From Candidatus Pacearchaeota archaeon (lineage in GTDB: Archaea; Nanobdellota; Nanobdellia; Pacearchaeales; GW2011-AR1): DNA of 64,000 bases. This document shows positions 25,476 to 49,841 of this stretch, one piece after another. The notes below the pieces were generated by a model. It saw nothing but the letters and a program-made list of their open reading frames with translations, did no database searches and was not told where the DNA came from. How positions within the stretch are numbered: the stretch's first letter is position 1; every line of letters begins with the position of its first letter. A program made the translations under genes and the position numbers. The stretch spans positions 119,191-183,190 of the forward strand of contig JAVZZP010000001.1 of NCBI GenBank assembly GCA_038885615.1, read 5' to 3'.

Positions 25476-25548
25476 AGTCCAGTCGTCTAGCGGTCAAGGA
25501 TAGCGCGCTCTGGCCGCGCTGGCCCAGGTTCGAATCCTGGCGGGACTA
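25476..25548 (+). tRNA. tRNA-Gln(CUG)
   Basis: AGTCCAG-TC-GTCT-AGCGGTCAA-GGAT-A-GCGCG-CTCTGGC-CGCGC-TGGC-CCAGG-TTCGAAT-CCTGG-CGGGACT-A. T-arm and anticodon stem pair perfectly; U33 present; anticodon CUG. One A-G mismatch in the acceptor stem and two G-U pairs in the D stem. Followed by a T-run. Confidence 0.75.
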
Positions 25549-34107: not shown

Positions 34108-34349
34108 ATTTATTATTTATTTTTTTGTTTTAAAAGCTTTTGTTTAATTTACAAACAACCTCTATTGTCACTTTAAAATTACAACAAATAGAAAAGTTTA
34201 AAAACCCTGAAAACCATACATAATTATCACCTCTTTTTCCCCAGAAGGGGCTGAGATAGGGCATGCTCTTTCTGAACTTGCTCTGTCAAGCCCTTTCCAG
34301 GGTTTTAATGAAAAATTGATAATTATTTTTAAAAATTAATTTCTAGAAG

Positions 34350-34420
34350 CAGGCACCAGGATTTGCACCTGGGATCAGCGGGTTGCAGCCGCTTGCCTTA
34401 CTACTTGGCTATGCCTGCGT
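34350..34420 (-). tRNA. tRNA-Cys(GCA)
   Basis: Minus strand GCAGGCA-TA-GCC..AGTAGTAA..GGC-A-AGCGG-CTGCAAC-CCGCT-GATC-CCAGG-TGCAAAT-CCTGG-TGCCTGC-T. Perfect 7-bp acceptor stem; anticodon GCA. Confidence 0.85.
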
Positions 34421-34465
34421 AAAATTATAAAGAAAAATGAGTTTTTAAGGTTTATTTAACAAAGA

Positions 34466-34539
34466 TGGCTCCGACGGGATTTGAACCCGCGACACCTGGC
34501 TTAAAAGGCCAGTACTCTACCAGGCTGAGCTACGGAGCC
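34466..34539 (-). tRNA. tRNA-Lys(UUU)
   Basis: Minus strand GGCTCCG-TA-GCTC-AGCCTGGTA-GAGT-A-CTGGC-CTTTTAA-GCCAG-GTGTC-GCGGG-TTCAAAT-CCCGT-CGGAGCC-A; anticodon UUU. Confidence 0.85.
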
Positions 34540-34581
34540 ATAAAAATTAGAATAAAAAACGATTTAAAAATCTAACCTTTG

Positions 34582-39223: not shown

Positions 39224-41980
39224 TCATAAAGGAAAAAAACTTTTTCTAGCTGTTACGACTAAAGAACAATCCGTTGGTTCATTCCCAAATTCATCCTTGC
39301 ATTTTATGTAGTATGTTTTATCGTTGTCCCAAGGAGAAACATGAACTCTTGATTTAGCAAAAGGCATATTTGTTCCTTCATTAAATAAATAGTCACAACT
39401 CTCTGTTGAATAAACACAATCAGAAATTCTATTAGTTTCTATTCTTAAATAATCATCGCTGTAAAAAGCTCTTGCTATAAGTGGTGGCGTCGTTACAATT
39501 TCAAGTTCAAATTCTCCTTCTGTTTCTGCTAAATTTCCTCCGGCATCAATGCATTTAACATAATATTTATGTCTTCCATCATAAAGATCTAATCTTTGAG
39601 TGCTTATACCGTCGGCTTTATTTGTATCAAAGAAAGGTATAAAGCTATTTGGATATCCGGTTAATGAGTAGAAGCATGTTGCTTTATTGTCGTTACAACC
39701 AAACAAAGTTTCAACCTTCAATTCAACTGAAAAAGGAGAAAATCCTCCCACAACTTTTGTGTTGTTTGGTGATATTGATTTTATTTTTAGAGGATTTGAA
39801 CCTCTCACAGAATATTTGAAAGATTGCATCATTTTATTTCTTTCTTTTTCCTCTAATCCAGGATTATCTTTACATCTTATATAGTAATCAGTTCCTTCTT
39901 TCTTTATGCCTATTAAGTTTGCTCTACAAGTGTATAGAAGCATAGAATTTATTTCAAAAACATTTTGTACACAGGACATATTGTAAGTCATTTCTTCAAA
40001 GTCCTTATCCTTAAAATCCCATCTGCATTCCGCAGGTTCATCAGTATAAAATTCAACAATAGAAGAGTTTTGATCTGCTGCTATACAATTTTCACTTTCT
40101 ATTGAAACTGCTTTTATTTGTGGGGGAGTGTTGTCTGGAGCATCATCAACACAAAATCTTACCGCATAAGGTGCTTGATTTACATTTCCTTGTGCATCTC
40201 TGCACATAATATATAAAGTCATTTCTTTGCCCATCTCTAAAGTTAAAGAAGAATTTTGCAAATCTTTTGCTCTTGGAACATGAAGAATTGCGGAGAAATT
40301 CTTTCTGTAAGTGCTGTCTTCATCCATATAAGAGAGCATTTCTTCAAAGGTGTTTTTCTTTTCCAAGTCTATCTTGCATTGAGCAGGTTCATTTGTTAAA
40401 ACACCAAATTGTATTGGTGAGAATGCCTTGATACAAGGATTCACATCCTGTCTAACTATTCTAAATCCAGGACCAGGAGGAGAGGTTCTTACATCTGTAT
40501 AAGCATAACCCTCTGTTAGTTTCTCATTCCACGGCATTATTATAGGGGGAGAAACCTCTCTCTTACTATTATCAACACATAACTCATTACCAGTTCCCTG
40601 ATTTACTAGGGCACAGGTTTGTCCTAGGGATTTGCAGCGATATTCAGAACAAGGCAAGCCATCTTGATTGCATAAATCACAATCCTCCCCCCCGTGAGGT
40701 GCCTGCCAAGGAAGACATTTAAATTCAACTTGCTCCTCAAAAGTTTTTGTCTTCTCATAATTTTTTACATAATACCACCAAGCGACTGCGGCACCAATGG
40801 CAACATGAAATGTTTTTGAACCAAGAAATTTAACAAACTTATTTTGAGAGCTAGTTAAATCAAACCAACCTCCTTCTCCTAAAACCTGCTGTGCTGTTTT
40901 AAATGAAATAACTCCTAAAAAAGCTGCTTCAGCAATAGAATCAACCATTTCTTGATTTTCTTTTGCAACAAAGCTTCCGGCTGCTTTAATAAAGCCCCCA
41001 ACTGCTATTGCCCAAGTAAGCCCTTCAACCAAATGCCCAATTCCACCATATTTAAAAATTGAAAGATTTGCTTTTTTAGCCCATTCGAAAGGATAATCAT
41101 CTCTTTTACCTGACCAATAACCCGTCTTTTTACCTTCTGGTGGATCTTGCGTCGGACTATCTCTTTCTCTTGACTCCTCACTTCCTCCTTTTCCATTATC
41201 GCTATTACTTCTATCAACCCGCAAAGCTGTTCCCCCCTTTGTTGGTGTTTGCGCCAAACTAGTAGACTTACTATTATGCACCAAAACCCCCTCGGCAAAA
41301 TACCATTTTCCGCCTAAATCCAAGTCAAAAACCTCAATTCCTTCTGGCTTTTCAACAATTTCAATTTTTTCAATGAAAACTTTTTTTCCGTCAATTCCCA
41401 AAAAATAATCGCTGACTTTTGCGTTGCCGACAGGCTGCCATTTTCCATTAAGCAAAACCTCGTGATTCGGAGTTATTTCAAGCTTGTCATTTATCTTTAA
41501 ATAAGAATATTTCTTTAAAACAATAACATTTCGCACAACCTCTTTTGTCAGCGCGCGCTTTTCAAAATCATAACTAAGCACCTCGTCGCCCGGCCTTATT
41601 TCTGAGATCGGCTTTGTTTGAAGGTTCGCGAGGGTGATGAGAGTTGAAGGAGTGAGACATGATGCTGGGTTTAATTTTCTATTGAGAATTGATACAACAT
41701 CTTCTTCATCAGAAATATCTACATCTTCTTCTATGTTTCGGCTTTCTCCTACCTGCCTATACCATTTATCACCTTGCTTATAATAAACAATAGACTTAAA
41801 AAGAGCGCTTCCAACAAAAGTATCTACGACAATAGTATCATCAGAGATTGTTTTATAATATTCTCTTATTTCCTGGTTATTTCCACTCGCCCTCTCCGCC
41901 ATTCCAATCATATAAGCAAAACTCACAATTCCCAAAATCATTAAAAACATCTGGCTGTAGGCGAGTGCGCACTTGTTCAT
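39224..41980 (-). CDS. giant secreted disulfide-rich surface protein (918 aa) with N-terminal mini-intein, glycine-zipper hydrophobic segment and four C-terminal ~105-aa tandem repeats
   Basis: N-terminal signal/TM (MFLMILGIVSFAYMIGMA). Hint domain at aa 108-236. Hydrophobic Gly/Ala-rich segment at aa ~311-405. C-terminal domain opens FKCLPWQAPHGGEDCDLCNQDGLPCSEYRCKSLGQTC, homologous to aa ~843-880 of the 1341-aa ORF. Four repeats each end in YY(I/V)(K/R)C(K/I)D..GN. 4-nt ATGA overlap with the upstream 774-aa ORF. Confidence 0.8.
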   Translation of the reverse strand: MNKCALAYSQMFLMILGIVSFAYMIGMAERASGNNQEIREYYKTISDDTIVVDTFVGSALFKSIVYYKQGDKWYRQVGESRNIEEDVDISDEEDVVSILNRKLNPASCLTPSTLITLANLQTKPISEIRPGDEVLSYDFEKRALTKEVVRNVIVLKKYSYLKINDKLEITPNHEVLLNGKWQPVGNAKVSDYFLGIDGKKVFIEKIEIVEKPEGIEVFDLDLGGKWYFAEGVLVHNSKSTSLAQTPTKGGTALRVDRSNSDNGKGGSEESRERDSPTQDPPEGKKTGYWSGKRDDYPFEWAKKANLSIFKYGGIGHLVEGLTWAIAVGGFIKAAGSFVAKENQEMVDSIAEAAFLGVISFKTAQQVLGEGGWFDLTSSQNKFVKFLGSKTFHVAIGAAVAWWYYVKNYEKTKTFEEQVEFKCLPWQAPHGGEDCDLCNQDGLPCSEYRCKSLGQTCALVNQGTGNELCVDNSKREVSPPIIMPWNEKLTEGYAYTDVRTSPPGPGFRIVRQDVNPCIKAFSPIQFGVLTNEPAQCKIDLEKKNTFEEMLSYMDEDSTYRKNFSAILHVPRAKDLQNSSLTLEMGKEMTLYIMCRDAQGNVNQAPYAVRFCVDDAPDNTPPQIKAVSIESENCIAADQNSSIVEFYTDEPAECRWDFKDKDFEEMTYNMSCVQNVFEINSMLLYTCRANLIGIKKEGTDYYIRCKDNPGLEEKERNKMMQSFKYSVRGSNPLKIKSISPNNTKVVGGFSPFSVELKVETLFGCNDNKATCFYSLTGYPNSFIPFFDTNKADGISTQRLDLYDGRHKYYVKCIDAGGNLAETEGEFELEIVTTPPLIARAFYSDDYLRIETNRISDCVYSTESCDYLFNEGTNMPFAKSRVHVSPWDNDKTYYIKCKDEFGNEPTDCSLVVTARKSFFPL
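41273..41659 (-). mobile_element. mini-intein / Hint domain (~129 aa, no homing-endonuclease domain) inside the 918-aa ORF
   Basis: Block A C-LTPSTLITLA with Cys1. Block B LEITPNHEVLL (T-x-x-H). Blocks F/G VFDLDLGGKWYFAEGVLVHN with terminal His-Asn, followed by +1 Ser (HN|S). Coordinates calculated from ORF start 41980: aa 108 to aa 236. Confidence 0.7.
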
Positions 41981-44301
41981 TTCTCCTCCACTAAAAATTT
42001 AATTCCTGTTCCATACTCTCCAAGAGATAGTCCTTCTTCTGAGCTTCCACCTGAAACAATTTTTTTGGGAATCTCTTTTCCAGCCAACTTCTCCCACATT
42101 TTCTGAGCAAAAGTTTTATCCTCTTTAATAACTGTTTGCTGCTTTATTTCTTGAGGAAAGCTTAGTTTTTCAACTCTGATTTCCTCTCCGTCACTTGCGA
42201 CAATTACATCACCCACTTTTATTTCTTCTATTTGCTTCAAAGAATATTTATCTTCTTTTTTTAATAAAACATAACTTCCTTTTCTAACCTCTATTCTGTC
42301 ATTAATTAAAATAGAATCCTTTCTTTCTTTAATTACAAATCCTGTTCCTCTTGTTTGATGGCCTTGTTTCAAATTTCCTAGCAAACTGAAAGAAGAATTT
42401 TTGTATTTCCAAGAATAACCATCATCTGTATATTTATCATTTATATTTACATTAGCACCGCAATCACCCAAGGAAGTACAAATTGCATTTACTTTTACTG
42501 CCCAATCGTGCTTTGGAATTAAAGAGTAACTTTTTGAGCTTCCCTTAGGAGGACTTCCTCCTTCCCATTCTAAACACTCGCTCGTTACCTCAACCCCGCT
42601 TTCATTTACCATCTTAAATTCATATTCTTTGTCTCCAAAAGGACCTGCAATACTAGAATATTTTTCGGTTCTTTCTATTATTACCTTGCAAACAGCAGAG
42701 GCCATATTGCAATTTCCTTCACCAAGCCAGAACTTATTTCCAGGAGGAATCAAAGGAACACAAAGACCTCCTTCATCAACCTCGCTTTTATTGAATTTAG
42801 TAACTTTATTCAGAATATCATAATCAAATTCCCATATTCCTTTGCCGCTTGAAACAAAAGGATTGAGTGCTTTTCCTGTAATAACCTTTCCCGTAGGATT
42901 AGTAAAAAAAGGTGCTGCTTGTTGAACAAGTCCTGCTGCTTGCATTGCTGTGTCTACTCCTGACTGTCCTCCAGAAGTTGGATTCTGAAAATAGGGGGTA
43001 GGATTAGAAAAGCTAGATGTTTGCTGTTGTGCTTTGTTCCAATTCAAACCTTCAACATCGTCTATCCAGATACAATCCCTAACATCAATATTTTCACAAT
43101 CTTTCTTTCTCCATTGATAAATACAATCTTGCCAGCGATTTACACGGCAGGCTGCTGTTGAAAATTCTCCTGCAGAAGTCTGAATTCCTGAATGAATGCA
43201 AATCTGTTTTCTATAATCCGCACAAGGATCTGTAACAACTTCTCCGTCTATGCAAATTTGCCTGAAATGCCTTGAACCAACTTTTTCATAACCTTTTCCT
43301 GGTTCAATATCATAAACACACCAGCTTTCTCCGTTTAAGCGGGTTTTTCCACTCATATCTTTACATGTTGTTTTTTTACAGATATACTCTCCTTCTTTTC
43401 CTAAATCTGTTGTTTTCTTTCCATCTTTTCTCGCACAAACACTTCCTAAAAGATAATCGCAGTTTCCACAACTATTACTGCCACCGCTTCTTGGACAAAT
43501 TTCATCTGGATCGGCAACTCTTCCGCGATTCCAAGATTTATCTTTGTCAGAAGAATAAACATTTTCCCTATTTCCACAAGAATCAAACCAATAAACTTTT
43601 CCTTTATAACAACCAACACTTGTTTGCCTAGCACACTCCGTATGTAACTCTTCGGCAGAGCATAGAACATCTTTGTAAAATTTCTTTCCTGTTTCTTGCT
43701 CTAGAATAGATTTATTAACATTTAAAGCAATTACCCCATCTTTTGCCCCACACTCTTTTCTAGTCGTAAATTTGCACTCATTAACTCCTGTTCCTGTATA
43801 GGTGACACAAGCCCCCATATCTTGAGAATTAGCTAAAAAAATACACTCGCCTTCATCTGTAACCGAAGCTCTGAAATCCATTGAAATTCCATAATAAGTA
43901 GAAAGTTTTTTACAACGGGCTAAAGTAACCAATGCTGCTTGGTCAGCAATAATACAACAACCTAAACGACAAGTAGGAATTTCTGAAGCTTTTTTCTCGC
44001 TCCAGGTTCCATTTCTGTCTTGACAAACCTGCTGAGGAACATTTTCCATGCAAAGACCCTCTTTAGAATCATAACAAGTTCCTGTTTTACAAAAAGAGGT
44101 TTGCTCACAGAAAGAGGGGGCAATTCTAAAAGACGAATCACATTCGCTCTCCGCGGAGTTTAAACAAGCTCCTCCTGATTTTGTTCTCTCGCAACAAACA
44201 GAAGGGGTTGAAAGTATGGCGGAAGATAAACTAAGAAGGAATGTTAAAAGAAATAAAATCAAAAATAATTCTTTTATCAATAAGATCCTGCGGATGGCCA
44301 T
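41977..44301 (-). CDS. giant secreted disulfide-rich surface protein (774 aa), paralog of the N-terminal ~560 aa of the 1341-aa ORF
   Basis: Signal peptide (LFLILFLLTFLLSLSSAILS). Shared blocks with the 1341-aa ORF: three C..GCC modules; VYWFDSCGNRENVY ~ VYFVDSCGNIANIY; SCGNCDYLLGSVC ~ SCGNCNYIGGSVC; NGESWCVYDIEPGKGYEKVGSRHF ~ HGESWCVYDINPLSGISPVGSRHF. About 60 Cys. Confidence 0.8.
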   Translation of the reverse strand: MAIRRILLIKELFLILFLLTFLLSLSSAILSTPSVCCERTKSGGACLNSAESECDSSFRIAPSFCEQTSFCKTGTCYDSKEGLCMENVPQQVCQDRNGTWSEKKASEIPTCRLGCCIIADQAALVTLARCKKLSTYYGISMDFRASVTDEGECIFLANSQDMGACVTYTGTGVNECKFTTRKECGAKDGVIALNVNKSILEQETGKKFYKDVLCSAEELHTECARQTSVGCYKGKVYWFDSCGNRENVYSSDKDKSWNRGRVADPDEICPRSGGSNSCGNCDYLLGSVCARKDGKKTTDLGKEGEYICKKTTCKDMSGKTRLNGESWCVYDIEPGKGYEKVGSRHFRQICIDGEVVTDPCADYRKQICIHSGIQTSAGEFSTAACRVNRWQDCIYQWRKKDCENIDVRDCIWIDDVEGLNWNKAQQQTSSFSNPTPYFQNPTSGGQSGVDTAMQAAGLVQQAAPFFTNPTGKVITGKALNPFVSSGKGIWEFDYDILNKVTKFNKSEVDEGGLCVPLIPPGNKFWLGEGNCNMASAVCKVIIERTEKYSSIAGPFGDKEYEFKMVNESGVEVTSECLEWEGGSPPKGSSKSYSLIPKHDWAVKVNAICTSLGDCGANVNINDKYTDDGYSWKYKNSSFSLLGNLKQGHQTRGTGFVIKERKDSILINDRIEVRKGSYVLLKKEDKYSLKQIEEIKVGDVIVASDGEEIRVEKLSFPQEIKQQTVIKEDKTFAQKMWEKLAGKEIPKKIVSGGSSEEGLSLGEYGTGIKFLVEEK

Positions 44302-45044
44302 GGGTAGCTTCTTACAGCAAAATTAAATTTAATTTTTTCATTTTTTTCTATAACTGAATATACCTTAGTATCATCATCTCTTCTCTCCTTTAAAATTTTT
44401 ATGTTAGGATAGTATAACATTTGCTGCATTTGTTCGCTATCACCATAATAAGTTTCAAATTGAATCAATGAAGTCGCTATCATCAATACCTCATATAAAT
44501 TTGTTTTATATTTGTAAGTCAGATCTTTTTTTGAAGAGGTTGTTTCACCGAAAGATAGTTTTATCGGAGCTTTAATTTTAACCTTAACTTCTTTTGGCTC
44601 TATAAAAACCTCGTAAGAGATTTCTCCTCTTTCTACATCAAGGCCTCTCTTCTGTAAATCTTTAATTGAATTCTCATAACATTTTTCAAAATCTTCTTTT
44701 ACTAACTCCTTTAGTGATTGCTCAAATCTATCTTTCAAGAAAGGCTCTTGGTTCACACACGGTTTTAAATATTCGTTTGTATAACAAAGAATAGTATAAT
44801 TTTCCCCCTTATACATATAAGTAAATTTTGGCTCAAGAACCCCTGCTTTTAAAGATAACTCCTGAATTTTCTTTGACAAAGAGCCGTCTAAACAATTTTC
44901 AAAGCCGCTTGTTCTAAAACCAAGACGATTAGTAATAGGTTTAATAAATTCTGGTTTCAGAGAATTGATGATAAAAAAAACTCCAAAAACTAAAATAATT
45001 CCTAAAATAATAAATAAAGCAACTTGCCCCCTTTTGTTTTTCAT
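44277..45044 (-). CDS. class-III signal peptide (archaeal type-IV-pilin-like) protein, 255 aa
   Basis: MKNKRGQVALFIILGIILVFGVFFII: basic n-region, G at -1, Q at +1, ~20-residue hydrophobic stretch, no Glu+5 (archaeal PibD/EppA-type substrate pattern). Paralog of 49080-49841 (shared C..PC pair, DxTKVY...K(I/F)(K/N)FA(I/V)R). Overlaps the downstream 774-aa ORF by 25 nt. Confidence 0.6.
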   Translation of the reverse strand: MKNKRGQVALFIILGIILVFGVFFIINSLKPEFIKPITNRLGFRTSGFENCLDGSLSKKIQELSLKAGVLEPKFTYMYKGENYTILCYTNEYLKPCVNQEPFLKDRFEQSLKELVKEDFEKCYENSIKDLQKRGLDVERGEISYEVFIEPKEVKVKIKAPIKLSFGETTSSKKDLTYKYKTNLYEVLMIATSLIQFETYYGDSEQMQQMLYYPNIKILKERRDDDTKVYSVIEKNEKIKFNFAVRSYPWPSAGSY

Positions 45045-45078
45045 ATTTTTTAAAGAAAAAATGTCTTTATAAATTCTT

Positions 45079-48000
45079 TTATTTTAGGTTTATTGGTTTG
45101 ACAGAAATACAAAACTTCTGTTCATTTAGTTTTTTGTCTCTGCATTTAATATAATAAGTTTCATAAGGATTTGCAGAAAAACTATGCGTTTTAGACAAAT
45201 ATTTAGTTGAAGAAGCATTTTGAATATCTCTTAAACTTTTTTCGCAAACTTCGGAATAATTTAAATGATAAAAACACTCTGCGTCCTCATCTGTTTGCAA
45301 GGACAATCTATTACCATCGTAAGCTGTTCTTACTATTATTGGTGGTTGTTCGTCGAAAAAAACCTGGAAATTAAAAGTTGTTTCGTTTATGTTTTTAGCT
45401 TCATCTTCACACTTAACATCAATAGAATATTTTCCTTGTGGCAGCATTAATAATTGACTATGTGCTGTCCCACCAGTTTCATAGAAGTTTATAAATCCGG
45501 AGGAAAAATTTTCAATTTTATAAGAGCAAATCGCATTTCCTAAGCAACCAGAAGTACTAACTGAAAGAGTGAAGTTTTTCTCTTCAATAAAAGTGTTTCT
45601 ATTAATAAGGTTTATATTTATGCCCTCTCTACAGACATTTAAGATGTATTCTTTACTATGAAGATTTGGATTTCTTTTATCAAATTCTGTTTCTTCGGTT
45701 AAGTCAGGTTTATCCTTGCATCTGAAATAAAATTTATTTTGTCCTTCTTCTAAATTTGATAAAAGTGTGAAGCACCTCCATTCTCCAAGGAAAACACTAT
45801 CTTGAGAGGTTAGACAAGTCATATTATTTGGCATTTTCTCGTAACCTTGCTCTCCTGTAACAACATCATATTCCTGGATAAATCTGCATTCTGCCGGCTC
45901 ATTAAGATATAAGATAACTGCGGTCGAATTTGTTCCTTTTTTTAGATAGCTTCCACTAGCAGGTTCAAATCTTTTTAATTCAGCCGGAGTTAAGTCGTAG
46001 CTATCTTTTACTTTTATCTGAACAACAAATTCTGCCTCGTTTACTTGGCCCGCAAAATTCATACATCTTATATAATATTCATTTTCCTCTCCAACAGATA
46101 AACCAAGAGTGTTTGTTGAAGCTGTTTTATCTCTTAAATAAGGAGAAAGAGTTATTTTATGGTGTGTGCCTTCTGCTTTCCCTGTTTGAGGATTTATTTC
46201 AGAAATCATCTCAAATTTCATTTCATCATAGTTTTTTGTGTGTTCATAATCTATCTTGCATGTTGCTGGTTTGTCTGTGATAATACCAAAAGTTAATTCT
46301 TGCCATGGTTCTACTCCGCCGCCATTTGGTCCAGCAATTCTAAATCCGTTGTCTCTTATGTTTGTATATGAGTTCCCCTGTGTTAAAATCTCTGGCCAAG
46401 GAGTTATTTTTGCCTGCCATATTTCATTAATTGTCGCACAATAGCCCGGTTCTCCTTTGTCAACAAAATAATGACATCTTGCTCCTAAAGATTTACATCT
46501 GTATTCAGAGCAGGGCCTTACATCCTCATTGCAAAGCTCGCATTGAGATTCTTTTGGAGGTTTCCAAGATTGGCAGGAGAATTGCATGATGAAATATTCT
46601 TGTTCTTCATATTCATCGAAAAAAGCTGTATAAATAGTGTAAACAATTGCAGCAGCAAGAACAATCCAACCAATTGGATTTGTAGCTAAGAGACCTCCTG
46701 CTGTAGCAAAAAATCCAGAACCTGAAGCTGCTGCAGATCCAAATCCAGTAGACAACCCAATTCCCACGGCAGCACCAACAGCAGCACCGACACTTGCCAT
46801 GAACATATTAAATTGATTTGATTTTCCAGGACTCCAATCCTGGTTTTTGGAAATTAATTTTCCAATTTGATAACCTACAACGGCCCCTACTGCTGCAGCA
46901 CCTAAGACATAACCTCCTGCAGCTAAACCCCCTTTAGAAAAAGCTACAGCTCCGGCCTCCAACCAAGTACTTCCAGTAATAACAGCCAAACTAGTCCCAT
47001 AAGTACCTATAACTCCTGATAAGGCACTAAACCCTCCCAACGCCATTAAACCACTAATTACCATTGCTCCAGTCATTACATCATCAAATCCTCCTCCATC
47101 TCCAGGATTAACATTAGCTTGGCTCGCTAGTTTATTCAAATCAATAACTCCGGTTTGTGGGTCTCCGATAGTTCCTGCCGTATCTCCCGCATCTGCTGTT
47201 AAACCACTTCCTCGCGAAGCGATATCTTTAAGAGATTTTATTTGAGAAATTGATTTTTTTATTGAAGAAATATAATCCTCTGATAAAGTATAATTTTCAC
47301 TTGAAACCTCTTTTTGTTTTCCGGTTTTATCTATTTTCATTCTTTTTACTGTAAAACCTATTGTTGCATTATCATTATTCACTTTCCCAACAATATTAGA
47401 TGAAACTCCGCAAGTTCCAATTGCACGACATCTTTCATTTAAAGCAGCCATTAAAGCAGGCAAATCTTTTGTTTTTATGTTTTGATTAACTCCATCTATA
47501 TTGCATTCCCAATTTCTTTCATGGTCTTTCCAATCACCACAACCTCCTGCGAGAGTGCAATCCCTATGTATTTGACTAATACAAACAAAACTTCCTAAAG
47601 AACAGACTGCTGTTGATTCGAATTCGCTTCCACCATAATTTGCAGAAGAAAGTGTCTTTTGTTGCTGACTAGAAGAAGTTTGACTTGCTTTTCCGACAGG
47701 TGCTTTTGTTGTCCAGAATTGAAAACCTGGAGTAAATCTTGGTACGCAATGAGCTAAAACTTTGTTTTGGTCTTTTCCTAAATCATCAATTGCTCCTTGT
47801 TCAGCATTTGTTTTTTCAGGATCAAAACCAGCAAGAAATTTGTCATCGCTTCTTTTTAATTTGTCTTCTCCATAAAACTCATTAAACATTATGCATTGAG
47901 GGTTTTCATCGCATTTTTGTTTTACCTGCTCATAAGATTCTGCATCATTTGCATTTAAACAAGAACGCCAATCATTTACTAAGCATTTAGCAGAAGTATA

Positions 48001-49104
48001 ACCAGAAGAGCTATCTGTATTTTGGGCACAAATTTCTTGCATAAAATCAGCACAACCTTCAATGGTAATTTGCTCTTCAAAACAACGAGCTATAAAATGC
48101 CTTGAACCTACTGGAGAAATGCCGCTTAAAGGATTAATATCATAAACACACCAGCTTTCTCCGTGTTTTCTTTCTCCGCAATGCAAACTTTTACAAACAT
48201 AATCTCCGAAAGTCGGTTTTGGAGTTTTTCCTTGTTCATATTTTGTGCAAACACTTCCGCCTATATAATTACAATTACCACAAGAAGGGCTTTCTGGAGA
48301 ACAAGAATTCTCTGGAGGAATTGGTTTTTCCCAATAGCTTTGATCATCTGCCTTAGAAGCATCGTAGATATTCGCTATGTTTCCGCATGAATCAACAAAA
48401 TAAACTTGGTCTTTATCTTCAACACAGGTTGTTTTCTTTGTAGGTTTGCAAACAGTTTTTAATTCTTTTGCAGTACATAAATAGCCTGGCTTAAAATCCC
48501 CTGTTTTGCAGTTTTTCTTAGAGGTATAAACACAATTTTTCTCACCTGAAAAATCGCCCGAATCTGAAAGACAAGCTCCCAGTTCTTCTAAACCGAAATA
48601 TTTTTCGCAGCTCTCTCCGCTAGCCAAAGGGACAAATTTTTTTTCAAAATTATACTTGTTTGCTAGCAGGGTGCATTCTCGAGAGTTAGTTAGAGAAACT
48701 TGTGTTCCTAAAATACAACAACCTAACTGACATTGTGGAATGTTGCAACTAGGACTATCACTCCAATTTCCTCCGTTCTCCAAACATTTTTGTTTTGGAG
48801 AGTTCATTGAGCAGGTTCCTGTCGAAGGCGAATAACAGCAACCAATTCTACACTCATCAACAGAAGAACAAGAAGTTAAAAAAAGATTCTCCTTGCATAT
48901 GTCTGACTGAAAAAAAGGAATTTCTTGACAGATTGCTCCTTCTTTTGTTTCACGACAGCAACCCTTAATAGAGTCCTGTTGTGCAGAAACAATTTTTATA
49001 TCCTTTTCCGAAATTAAATAGGCAAAACTGAAAATAGCCAAAACCATTAAACTTATTTCTAAAGTTGCTATTTTCTTTTTCATATTCCGGCAGGCATTAC
49101 ACAA
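45079..49104 (-). CDS. giant secreted disulfide-rich surface protein (1341 aa), the unsplit form of the 774+918 pair
   Basis: Signal peptide (IATLEISLMVLAIFSFAYLI). N-terminal ~560 aa homologous to the 774-aa ORF. Gly/Ala-rich hydrophobic segment at aa ~672-829 (GAMVISGLMALGGFSALSGVIG...AAVGAVVGYQIG...VGAAVGAAVGIGLSTGFGSAAASGSGFFATAGGLLA...). C-terminal ~500 aa homologous to the 918-aa ORF C-terminus (FSCQSWKPPKESQCELCNEDVRPCSEYRCKSLGARC; four YY.(K/R)C.D repeats). No intein. Confidence 0.8.
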   Translation of the reverse strand: MCNACRNMKKKIATLEISLMVLAIFSFAYLISEKDIKIVSAQQDSIKGCCRETKEGAICQEIPFFQSDICKENLFLTSCSSVDECRIGCCYSPSTGTCSMNSPKQKCLENGGNWSDSPSCNIPQCQLGCCILGTQVSLTNSRECTLLANKYNFEKKFVPLASGESCEKYFGLEELGACLSDSGDFSGEKNCVYTSKKNCKTGDFKPGYLCTAKELKTVCKPTKKTTCVEDKDQVYFVDSCGNIANIYDASKADDQSYWEKPIPPENSCSPESPSCGNCNYIGGSVCTKYEQGKTPKPTFGDYVCKSLHCGERKHGESWCVYDINPLSGISPVGSRHFIARCFEEQITIEGCADFMQEICAQNTDSSSGYTSAKCLVNDWRSCLNANDAESYEQVKQKCDENPQCIMFNEFYGEDKLKRSDDKFLAGFDPEKTNAEQGAIDDLGKDQNKVLAHCVPRFTPGFQFWTTKAPVGKASQTSSSQQQKTLSSANYGGSEFESTAVCSLGSFVCISQIHRDCTLAGGCGDWKDHERNWECNIDGVNQNIKTKDLPALMAALNERCRAIGTCGVSSNIVGKVNNDNATIGFTVKRMKIDKTGKQKEVSSENYTLSEDYISSIKKSISQIKSLKDIASRGSGLTADAGDTAGTIGDPQTGVIDLNKLASQANVNPGDGGGFDDVMTGAMVISGLMALGGFSALSGVIGTYGTSLAVITGSTWLEAGAVAFSKGGLAAGGYVLGAAAVGAVVGYQIGKLISKNQDWSPGKSNQFNMFMASVGAAVGAAVGIGLSTGFGSAAASGSGFFATAGGLLATNPIGWIVLAAAIVYTIYTAFFDEYEEQEYFIMQFSCQSWKPPKESQCELCNEDVRPCSEYRCKSLGARCHYFVDKGEPGYCATINEIWQAKITPWPEILTQGNSYTNIRDNGFRIAGPNGGGVEPWQELTFGIITDKPATCKIDYEHTKNYDEMKFEMISEINPQTGKAEGTHHKITLSPYLRDKTASTNTLGLSVGEENEYYIRCMNFAGQVNEAEFVVQIKVKDSYDLTPAELKRFEPASGSYLKKGTNSTAVILYLNEPAECRFIQEYDVVTGEQGYEKMPNNMTCLTSQDSVFLGEWRCFTLLSNLEEGQNKFYFRCKDKPDLTEETEFDKRNPNLHSKEYILNVCREGININLINRNTFIEEKNFTLSVSTSGCLGNAICSYKIENFSSGFINFYETGGTAHSQLLMLPQGKYSIDVKCEDEAKNINETTFNFQVFFDEQPPIIVRTAYDGNRLSLQTDEDAECFYHLNYSEVCEKSLRDIQNASSTKYLSKTHSFSANPYETYYIKCRDKKLNEQKFCISVKPINLK

Positions 49105-49841
49105 GTGCGAATTGCAAATTTAATTTCTTTTTTAGAATCTCCGGCTGAATTTAAAATATAAACTTTAGTAGAGTCACCACCGCGAAATCTATCAATTTTA
49201 ACATCACGGTTCATTGCTTGCCAAACCATTAAATCAAATTCACAAAATGTTGATTCATAATTATTTATTGTCTCGGCAGTTCTTAGAAGAGCTGGAAGAG
49301 ATGATTTAAAGTTTCCTTTTAGATTTGAAATAGAAAGAGATGACTCCCCCTTGGAAAGATGAATATTTGTTTTAAAATCAAATGAAATTTGTTTTTCTTC
49401 AAAAATTAAATTAAAGGAATAATCTTCATATAAAAAAGAATACCCTTTTTTATCATAATTCTCCTTAATTGTTAATAAACATCTAGATAGATCCCTAGAA
49501 ACCTTATTTTCAATCTTTCTTCTTACTGACTCAATAAACAAAGGAGATTGTTGAACACAAGGAAAATAAAACTCAGAGGTAAAGCAAGAAAAAGGTACTC
49601 TTTCTCCACGATAAACATAAAAAACCTTAAACTCTTCTAAAAATTGTTTTTCTTTAAAAAAATTTTCTTCGTGCTTTTTTATAGAGTCTAAAATACAACT
49701 TCTTATGTCTAAAGAAGGGTCTTCTATGCTTTTTTTACTAAAGATAACCTCTGGTTTGATAAAAAAAAATAAAAAAACTGAAAAAAGAAGAATAATTCCA
49801 AGAATAATGAATAATACTGCTTGACCTCTTTTATTTCTCAT
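49080..49841 (-). CDS. class-III signal peptide (archaeal type-IV-pilin-like) protein, 253 aa
   Basis: MRNKRGQAVLFIILGIILLFSVFLFFFI: same KRG|Q + hydrophobic architecture as 44277-45044. Overlaps the 1341-aa ORF by 25 nt. Start lies 20 nt from the stop of the upstream DAC gene. Confidence 0.6.
   Translation of the reverse strand: MRNKRGQAVLFIILGIILLFSVFLFFFIKPEVIFSKKSIEDPSLDIRSCILDSIKKHEENFFKEKQFLEEFKVFYVYRGERVPFSCFTSEFYFPCVQQSPLFIESVRRKIENKVSRDLSRCLLTIKENYDKKGYSFLYEDYSFNLIFEEKQISFDFKTNIHLSKGESSLSISNLKGNFKSSLPALLRTAETINNYESTFCEFDLMVWQAMNRDVKIDRFRGGDSTKVYILNSAGDSKKEIKFAIRTCVMPAGI

Follow-up and report, generated by a model that had tools for sequence, protein, structure and literature searches.

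In a 64,000-nucleotide stretch of DNA from a Candidatus Pacearchaeota archaeon (contig JAVZZP010000001.1, positions 119,191–183,190; hereafter the window), an open reading frame (ORF) on the minus strand (39224–41980) encodes a 918-residue protein, and residues 108–236 of this protein (41273–41659, 129 residues) form a Hint-fold domain of the Hint (Hedgehog/intein) superfamily. The domain is of the BIL-A/PT-HINT branch and sits in a sub-clade with Ser at the +1 position. It probably functions as a BIL-type autoprocessing module rather than as a selfish intein. We tentatively favor a fuller reading of the sequences, in which this BIL-A/PT-HINT-branch domain would be active, would be kept by selection as a standing part of the C-terminal half of a two-part surface adhesin, and would act mainly by protein splicing.

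The class 1 residue set is complete in the domain, which like its host gene is read on the minus strand. Block A opens with Cys108-LTPST (41642–41659), and Cys108 (41657–41659) is the predicted N-terminal nucleophile. Block B contains Thr170-Pro-Asn-His173 (TPNH, 41462–41473), block F (VFDLDLGG, residues 217–224, 41309–41332) supplies the F-block Asp, and block G (residues 231–237, 41270–41290) reads GVLVHN, with His235 and Asn236 closing the domain and Ser237 (41270–41272) at +1. Neither an endonuclease nor a remnant of one was detected in the domain; its 129 residues align continuously to mini-Hints, with no insert between blocks B and F. A preliminary description of this DNA had placed a canonical mini-intein at residues 108–236, with every splicing residue and no endonuclease; the positions proved exact, and both statements about its make-up were confirmed.

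Independent searches identified the fold. Four Hint-clan models of Pfam matched the domain: Vint scored above its cutoff (28.8 bits, cutoff 27), over profile positions 1–71 of 166 only, and Intein_splicing, Hint and PT-HINT matched with E values of 3e-5 to 3e-4. In a phmmer search of the PDB, the top match was BIL2 of the T. thermophila BUBL1 locus (E 6e-5), followed by a Vint domain and Hedgehog. An exhaustive phmmer search of 1.84e9 proteins with the Hint query returned 2976 matches at E<=1e-3, 657 of them at E<=1e-10; it replaced a word-indexed homolog search, in which a 145-residue Hint query alone gave no matches. An AlphaFold2 (AF2) model computed from an 8-sequence alignment reached a predicted local distance difference test score (pLDDT) of 68.5, with core residues 20–125 at or above 70, which suffices for fold assignment and is too weak for active-site geometry. 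With this model, Foldseek returned BIL domains and mini-inteins at a probability of 1.0, in the order BIL2 (6y75), Clostridium thermocellum BIL (2lwy) and many mini-inteins. The agreement of Pfam, the PDB search, the exhaustive search and Foldseek makes this more than a chance match, and the profile and modeling checks thus bear out the preliminary assignment of a Hint fold. A six-frame scan of the window with a Hint hidden Markov model (HMM) detected this intact domain and one degenerate relic, described below, with no further copies and no small-ORF motif. The identical protein is deposited at NCBI (P0001, 100% identity) under the label "Hint domain-containing protein".

The wider family places the domain among BIL-A and PT-HINT domains. 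Its nearest relatives outside the orthologs are secreted proteins, often with 2–8 tandem Hint copies, and some of them begin like bacterial type IV pilins. In Pfam they fall under PT-HINT (E values of 1e-13 to 1e-42), and two of them, from a Nanoarchaeota archaeon and an Omnitrophota bacterium respectively, bear the NCBI name "polymorphic toxin-type HINT domain-containing protein". Among 284 domain matches of the collected relatives, Cys1 is present in 231 (44 are gapped there), the block B Thr in 255 and its His in 261. In the 190 complete domains, C1, TxxH and HN are near-universal; at +1, Lys is the commonest residue (79 domains), ahead of Ser (25), Ala (24) and Gly (11). A-type BIL domains are defined by a C-terminal His-Asn, no +1 nucleophile and a location in the hypervariable part of a non-conserved secreted protein (PMC4031507, PMC7765530). 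Near-universal C1, TxxH and HN together with a Lys-rich +1 position are therefore the signature of A-type BIL domains. Within this family, all five outgroup Hints nearest to the window domain (P0056, P0037, P0048, P0062 and P0058) carry Ser at +1. Ser+1 is kept in 13 of the 14 nearest domains, orthologs and outgroups together, in a linker that is otherwise unconserved and in which Ser makes up only 18% of the residues after the Hint.

Several members of the family, among them P0036 (3399 residues), P0041 and P0053, are very large secreted metagenome proteins with 3–8 Hints of this family, some of which repeat exactly within one protein; P0036 has two identical copies, each inside a longer duplicated segment. 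These Hints carry Lys or Gly at +1, and the arrangement looks like multi-site autoprocessing of giant surface proteins.

Nine orthologs carry the Hint in the same place, namely P0001 and eight further homologs. The Hint is their best conserved part: averaged over pairs of orthologs, identity is 71% in the Hint, 53% in the Ig-like C-terminal domain (C-domain), 30% in the linker and hydrophobic part and 26% in the segment preceding the Hint (N-extein). Identity of the C-domain between orthologs spans 36–75%, whereas that of the Hint is flat at 63–78%, even where the C-domains share only 36–40%; the correlation between Hint and host identity is r = 0.61. TPNH and HN are invariant (9/9), as is DLDLGG of block F, and Cys1 is present in seven and Ser+1 in eight of the nine. 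All seven catalytically intact orthologs, the window protein and six others, have Ser+1. The two exceptions at Cys1 are P0018, in which Tyr replaces it in a domain that is 71% identical, and P0002, in which both Cys1 and Ser+1 are gone (HN is followed by Ile) and the rest of the domain is 86% identical. The co-loss in P0002 is consistent with Cys1 and Ser+1 working together. The Hint-less homologs P0008 and P0010 have no empty site at which the exteins are joined, and unrelated sequence stands there instead. Because the Hint is common to nine orthologs with C-domains diverged to 36% identity, these comparisons indicate a long-standing part of the protein family and no recent invasion.

The domain lies at the boundary between a variable and a constant part of its host. 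The N-extein (residues 1–107, 41660–41980) consists, by hydropathy, of a hydrophobic signal/anchor helix (residues ~3–31, 41888–41980) and ~76 hypervariable residues; orthologs share the helix, whereas their identity over the remaining segment is ~26%. Residues 32–392 of the 918-residue protein have no counterpart in its 1341-residue paralog by BLASTP. The variability was captured directly in P0004 and P0005, which come from two different sequencing runs (contigs L005 and L006). Their DNA is 100% identical for 625 nucleotides upstream, including the tail of the preceding gene, the signal helix and the first ~40 codons; two unrelated cassettes of 253 nucleotides (L006 634–886) and 292 nucleotides (L005 7425–7716) follow, and identity then resumes at 99.5% over 2870 nucleotides, so that the flanks are 99.5–100% identical. 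The downstream breakpoint falls one codon 5′ of the Hint Cys1 codon. The N-extein is therefore a cassette that varies between strains and is bounded on its 3′ side by the N-terminal splice junction.

In relatives, a small ORF of 143–174 residues lies directly upstream of the Hint gene and overlaps its start in an ATGA (L002 7480–8004; L001 7573–8004); in P0003 (L004, from 8001) and P0018 it is fused in frame, and the window has no such ORF. It encodes a signal helix and then a variable segment, and ends in a conserved tail, CL[TS]PxT[QK]I..PYLxxGxYLxDExLxxLN, whose first ~13 residues mimic the Hint start (the Cys1 strand) and which diverges beyond them. We considered these ORFs as live donor cassettes acting through their "CLTPxTxI" tails. 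Only 25–38 of 78 nucleotides are identical to the downstream Hint start of the same locus, and there is therefore no sign of ongoing exchange at these loci.

Based on these features, we propose the following working model. The Hint stands between an exchangeable N-terminal cassette (signal/anchor helix and ~76 residues) and a constant body made of linker, hydrophobic helices and an Ig-like stalk. After synthesis or export, Cys108, aided by Thr170 and His173, would undergo an N-to-S acyl shift to a thioester, a step inferred from the residues present. The thioester would then pass to Ser237 by transesterification, and Asn236, aided by His235, would cyclize and free the 129-residue Hint, so that an ordinary peptide bond would connect the N-terminal cassette to the body. 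Uncoupled cleavage at the N- or C-terminus would probably occur as a side reaction or as the alternative, much as A-type BILs behave. True splicing is plausible because Ser+1 is invariant in the intact orthologs and in the five nearest outgroup Hints. Precedents exist for such chemistry: a Magnetospirillum BIL splices when given a +1 nucleophile by the Y+1C change (PMC4031507), and BIL2, the closest solved relative, hands its N-extein to a nucleophile by the same chemistry (PMC8616854); both results support the proposed mechanism. A hypervariable context such as that of the window Hint is typical of BILs (PMC7765530).

Several observations weigh against this proposal. The score of the window protein with Pfam PT-HINT (PF07591), 21.6 bits, is below the gathering cutoff of 27.7, whereas ortholog P0015 scores 29.5 and the nearest relatives 50–143. 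The termini of the AF2 model (construct residues 1–19 and 128–151) have a pLDDT below 50. Only 27 of the 190 complete relative domains have Ser or Thr at +1; the +1 position is thus mostly non-nucleophilic in the wider family, for which cleavage with no ligation is accordingly the rule. Without Cys1, the fold is still retained in P0002 and P0018, so it may have a non-catalytic role too.

A first alternative is autoprocessing of the A-type BIL or PT-HINT kind by cleavage only, in which an N- and/or C-terminal cut would free the variable cassette with its anchor helix and no ligation would follow. We consider this outcome somewhat unlikely, although it has points in its favor. Besides the +1 residues of the wider family, the nearest relatives of the window Hint are PT-HINT domains, HINT acts as a release peptidase in polymorphic toxins (PMC3482391), and cleavage products of BILs dominate even where splicing happens (PMC4031507). 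Against it, Ser+1 is maintained in 13 of the 14 nearest domains in the midst of an unconserved linker, and P0002 lost Ser+1 and Cys1 together. Moreover, what follows the Hint is a constant and not a variable part; we found no Pfam toxin domain after the Hint and no adjacent immunity gene, and the downstream gene encodes a MutS-like ATPase. Judging by its sequence, with no toxin/immunity pair and with the variable part N-terminal to the Hint, the host protein is not a polymorphic toxin.

A selfish mini-intein, which would have invaded the ancestral gene, lost its homing endonuclease and persisted since the host needs precise splicing, appears improbable. It would account for the complete class 1 residue set including Ser+1, and the higher identity of the Hint (63–78%) than of the host C-domain (36–75%) could reflect horizontal spread. 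However, the Hint occupies no conserved site, both of its flanks are hypervariable and without counterpart in the paralog, the Hint-less P0008 and P0010 have unrelated sequence and no joined empty site, and no endonuclease or remnant is present. Likewise, the closest structures and HMMs are those of BIL and PT-HINT domains rather than of replication-protein inteins, and relatives occur as 2–8 tandem copies in secreted proteins. The preliminary description had offered two origins, a recent intein invasion or a BIL/Hedgehog-type autoprocessing module. The first, and with it the notion of a canonical mini-intein as a selfish element, does not fit the hypervariable segment, the PT-HINT/BIL-A-type relatives in secreted proteins and the nine orthologs with C-domains down to 36% identity; the second is favored by the affinity to BIL and PT-HINT domains and by the standing presence of the Hint in the orthologs.

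The splicing model places the Hint within a split protein, and the locus shows how this split is arranged. The 918-residue ORF is the last gene of a tandemly duplicated two-gene cassette, consisting of a pilin-like gene and a giant Cys-rich/Ig-like protein, that occupies 39224–49841 on the minus strand. The first copy comprises a 253-residue pilin-like protein (49080–49841) and, after it, the unsplit 1341-residue paralog (45079–49104), in which neither a Hint nor a relic is present. The second comprises a 255-residue protein with a pilin-like N-terminus, MKNKRGQ and a hydrophobic helix (44277–45044, no Pfam match), and, as the partners of this gene, a 774-residue N-half with a signal peptide and a Cys-rich domain (41977–44301) and the Hint-bearing C-half. 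By BLASTP, residues 49–412 of the 1341-residue protein match the 774-residue ORF and residues 814–1332 match residues 393–905 of the 918-residue ORF, both at 31% identity; the second copy is therefore a split version of the first. The 774-residue ORF, which is deposited at NCBI as a hypothetical protein from the same metagenome-assembled genome, ends in a stop that overlaps the start of the 918-residue ORF (ATGA), which is preceded at a short distance by GGAGG.

This organization is not confined to the window. The order of pilin-like gene, ~760-residue N-half and Hint-bearing C-half, including the split, is kept in four other contigs (L001, L002, L004 and L005); three of these (L002, L004 and L005) also keep the position of the 255-residue gene and have the unsplit and split copies arranged as in the window. 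Across Pacearchaeota and Nanoarchaeota, homologs of the host family number more than 1000, which is at odds with the "lineage-specific exoprotein" of the preliminary description. The N-half family alone numbers 1072 homologs at E<=1e-3, mostly split forms of 560–690 residues from Pacearchaeota and Nanoarchaeota.

The body that follows the Hint (C-extein, residues 237–918, 39227–41272, minus strand) comprises a Ser/Pro/Thr-rich linker (41066–41272), a region (40751–41065) with two or three moderately hydrophobic helices by hydropathy (residues ~306–410), and a Cys-rich module followed by a row of Ig/Fn3-like sandwiches (39227–40750). An AF2 model of the C-terminal body reached a pLDDT of 86, and Foldseek matched it to tandem Ig/Fn3 adhesion molecules and to the Aureispira grappling-hook protein GhpA. 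The N-terminal hydrophobic helix resembles that of the 1341-residue paralog. Together, the helix, the Cys-rich Ig-like body and the modeled adhesion matches support an extracellular, adhesin-like role of the 918-residue protein. The earlier view of a secreted surface protein with the Hint shortly after its signal peptide thus stood (the Hint begins ~77 residues from the hydrophobic signal/anchor), as did the statement that the 1341-residue paralog lacks the Hint: that protein gave no Hint HMM match and aligns with residues 393–905. A spliced product colinear with the paralog had also been suggested as a check; upon alignment, only the signal helix (residues 6–25) and residues 393–905 corresponded.

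Both ~254-residue proteins open with MKNKRGQ or MRNKRGQ and a hydrophobic helix, a start that resembles the archaeal class III (prepilin-type) signal. In orthologs of the Hint protein, a hydrophobic helix likewise follows an opening K[KR][GAS]-L-x-x-x-Q, a motif that MNKCALAYSQ of the window protein fits less well. The giant proteins may, on these sequences, be pilin-like, pilus-borne adhesins.

The N-half retains a trace of a second Hint. The tail of the 774-residue ORF carries a degenerate, Hint-derived relic at residues ~649–731 (42109–42357, minus strand), which runs from the block B strand to block F. A profile of this tail combined the window sequence with two N-half orthologs and the N-terminal parts of P0011 and P0014. 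By hhalign, 79 of its columns aligned to Hint positions 45–126 (probability 96%, P 4.7e-9); P was above 0.06 for each of 20 column-shuffled controls and for a reversed one. The alignment pairs ILINDRIEVRKGSYVLL with LKINDKLEITPNHEVLL, and VGDVIVASDGEEIRVEKL with VSDYFLGIDGKKVFIEKI. Consistently, the Hint HMM matched residues 655–717 with an E value of 1e-5 (2.4e-4 in the six-frame scan of the window). The relic reads RKGS where the Hint has TPNH, it has neither Cys1 nor HN, and the last 130 residues of the ORF contain no Cys at all. The relic thus lacks the residues expected of a split intein or fractured gene. The similarity noted in the preliminary description is thus real, though its register is different: the tail had been likened to the N-terminal subdomain of the Hint (residues 118–138), a register that scored −0.2 bits (independent E value 2.1) and was rejected, compared with 8.2 bits and the above hhalign P value for the register of blocks B to F.

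The split point of the second copy had likewise been suspected to lie in Hint-like sequence. In the window this is not so, since the ORF boundary lies ~45 residues beyond the relic; in sister lineages it falls inside the relic. Many N-halves of 650–690 residues end in INDKIKL.EDSYVLVKK and a stop, right after the strand equivalent to block B, and P0011 and P0014 begin with a signal peptide, after which the relic's second half comes first. The two pieces of the relic are separated in L007 by an MNT/HepT toxin-antitoxin pair (891–1504), which thus lies inside the relic. This insertion position is equivalent to the endonuclease site of inteins. Toxin-antitoxin modules between the N-half and C-half genes were seen in three independent relatives, as MNT/HEPN or HepT pairs and, in L002, a ParE-family toxin gene, at L001 5710–7591 and L002 6278–7483 besides L007; three independent insertions mark the fission point of the surface-protein gene as an insertion hot spot. 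The only RNA genes recovered in the window by tRNA and Rfam scans were three tRNAs, tRNA-Cys(GCA) with an adjacent tRNA-Lys(TTT), and tRNA-Gln(CTG) (34348–34540, minus strand, and 25476–25548, plus strand).

The exchangeable cassette and the relic could be combined into a broader scheme, to which we give little credence, in which DPANN archaea would use the Hint as a universal adaptor for varying their surface. Cassettes of a pilin-like helix and a variable head would recombine at the DNA level up to the Cys1 codon and, after export, would be spliced onto or released from a constant Ig-like stalk; the dead relic would dock the two secreted halves to each other again, non-covalently and in the manner of a split intein. 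The relic break in sister lineages is at the position equivalent to the break of natural split inteins.

Two further possibilities are more doubtful still. By analogy with Hedgehog and BUBL, the Cys108 thioester might be resolved by an external nucleophile (lysine, lipid or glycan), which would bind the cassette to a partner such as the 774-residue N-half; in favor of this, BIL2, to which the window Hint is closest among solved structures, attaches its N-extein to lysines of other proteins (PMC8616854), and the host forms a split surface protein together with an N-half that has a Hint relic, but BIL2 shares only ~26% identity, the conserved HN and Ser+1 indicate an internal acceptor, and the idea, with its hypothetical external acceptor, is purely one of analogy. 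Equally improbable is a catalytically spent domain that would serve as spacer, docking module or DNA/protein boundary for cassette exchange: P0002 and P0018 keep the domain at 86% and 71% identity, the L005/L006 swap stops at the Hint boundary and the N-half retains a non-catalytic relic, but the window protein and six other orthologs have a complete set of catalytic residues, and TPNH and HN, invariant in 9/9 orthologs, are hard to explain without catalysis.

Part of this picture was already available, as the protein is auto-annotated as Hint-containing and the domain type is known. New are the DPANN archaeal setting, a clade-wide +1 Ser in a BIL/PT-HINT-type lineage, the place of the domain beside the exchangeable N-terminal cassette of a split adhesin, and the Hint relic at the fission zone. 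A literature search combining Hint or intein with DPANN, Pacearchaeota, Woesearchaeota and Nanoarchaeota found no account of this protein family. To our knowledge, Hint domains beyond inteins and Hedgehog have been little studied, and BIL domains have so far been described as bacterial and without a +1 nucleophile. Here, an archaeal clade of BIL/PT-HINT-type domains has all residues of the splicing set and is located where a variable cassette meets a constant body. If splicing is true, the domain would represent a host-retained, non-selfish protein-splicing element in a surface protein, and a compact, naturally extracellular 129-residue Cys1/Ser+1 splicing domain that might serve protein engineering. 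For annotation, such Hint matches are better left out of intein counts in distribution surveys.

Comparison with known systems further defines the position of the window Hint. Unlike Hedgehog/Hog and Vint domains, it has HN and Ser+1, and no vWA domain accompanies it. With class 1 mini-inteins, such as the Ssp DnaB mini-intein, gp41-1 and the Pho RadA intein, it shares the full residue set and the Hint fold (Foldseek E values of 1e-5 to 1e-3); it differs from them in lying outside any conserved site of a conserved protein, in having no empty-site alleles, in being more conserved than its host and in its sequence neighbors, which are BIL/PT-HINT domains. BIL2 (6tmm, 6y75) is its best PDB match by both sequence (E 6e-5) and fold (E 8e-7, TM-score 0.58), and the two are of equal size, with Cys1 and a C-terminal Asn. 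However, BIL2 is eukaryotic and flanked by ubiquitin-like domains, its identity to the window Hint is only ~26%, and it makes an isopeptide bond from its N-extein to lysines of other proteins (PMC8616854).

The resemblance to PT-HINT lies in the nearest non-orthologous relatives, which belong to this model. PT-HINT is the pretoxin HINT autopeptidase of polymorphic toxins (Zhang et al. 2012, PMC3482391). In contrast to polymorphic toxins, the window Hint is near the N-terminus and is followed by a constant ~680-residue Ig-like body. A-type BIL domains were described by Amitai et al. (2003) and Dassa et al. (2004), according to PMC4031507 and PMC7765530. Like them, the window Hint is small and endonuclease-free, with Cys1, TxxH and His-Asn; it lies in the hypervariable region of a secreted or surface protein, its relatives occur in tandem copies, and the C. 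thermocellum BIL (2lwy) is among its best fold matches. It departs from them in its archaeal (DPANN) and not bacterial host, in a variable partner that is N-terminal to the Hint, and in Ser237, a clade-conserved +1 nucleophile in a class that is defined as having none.

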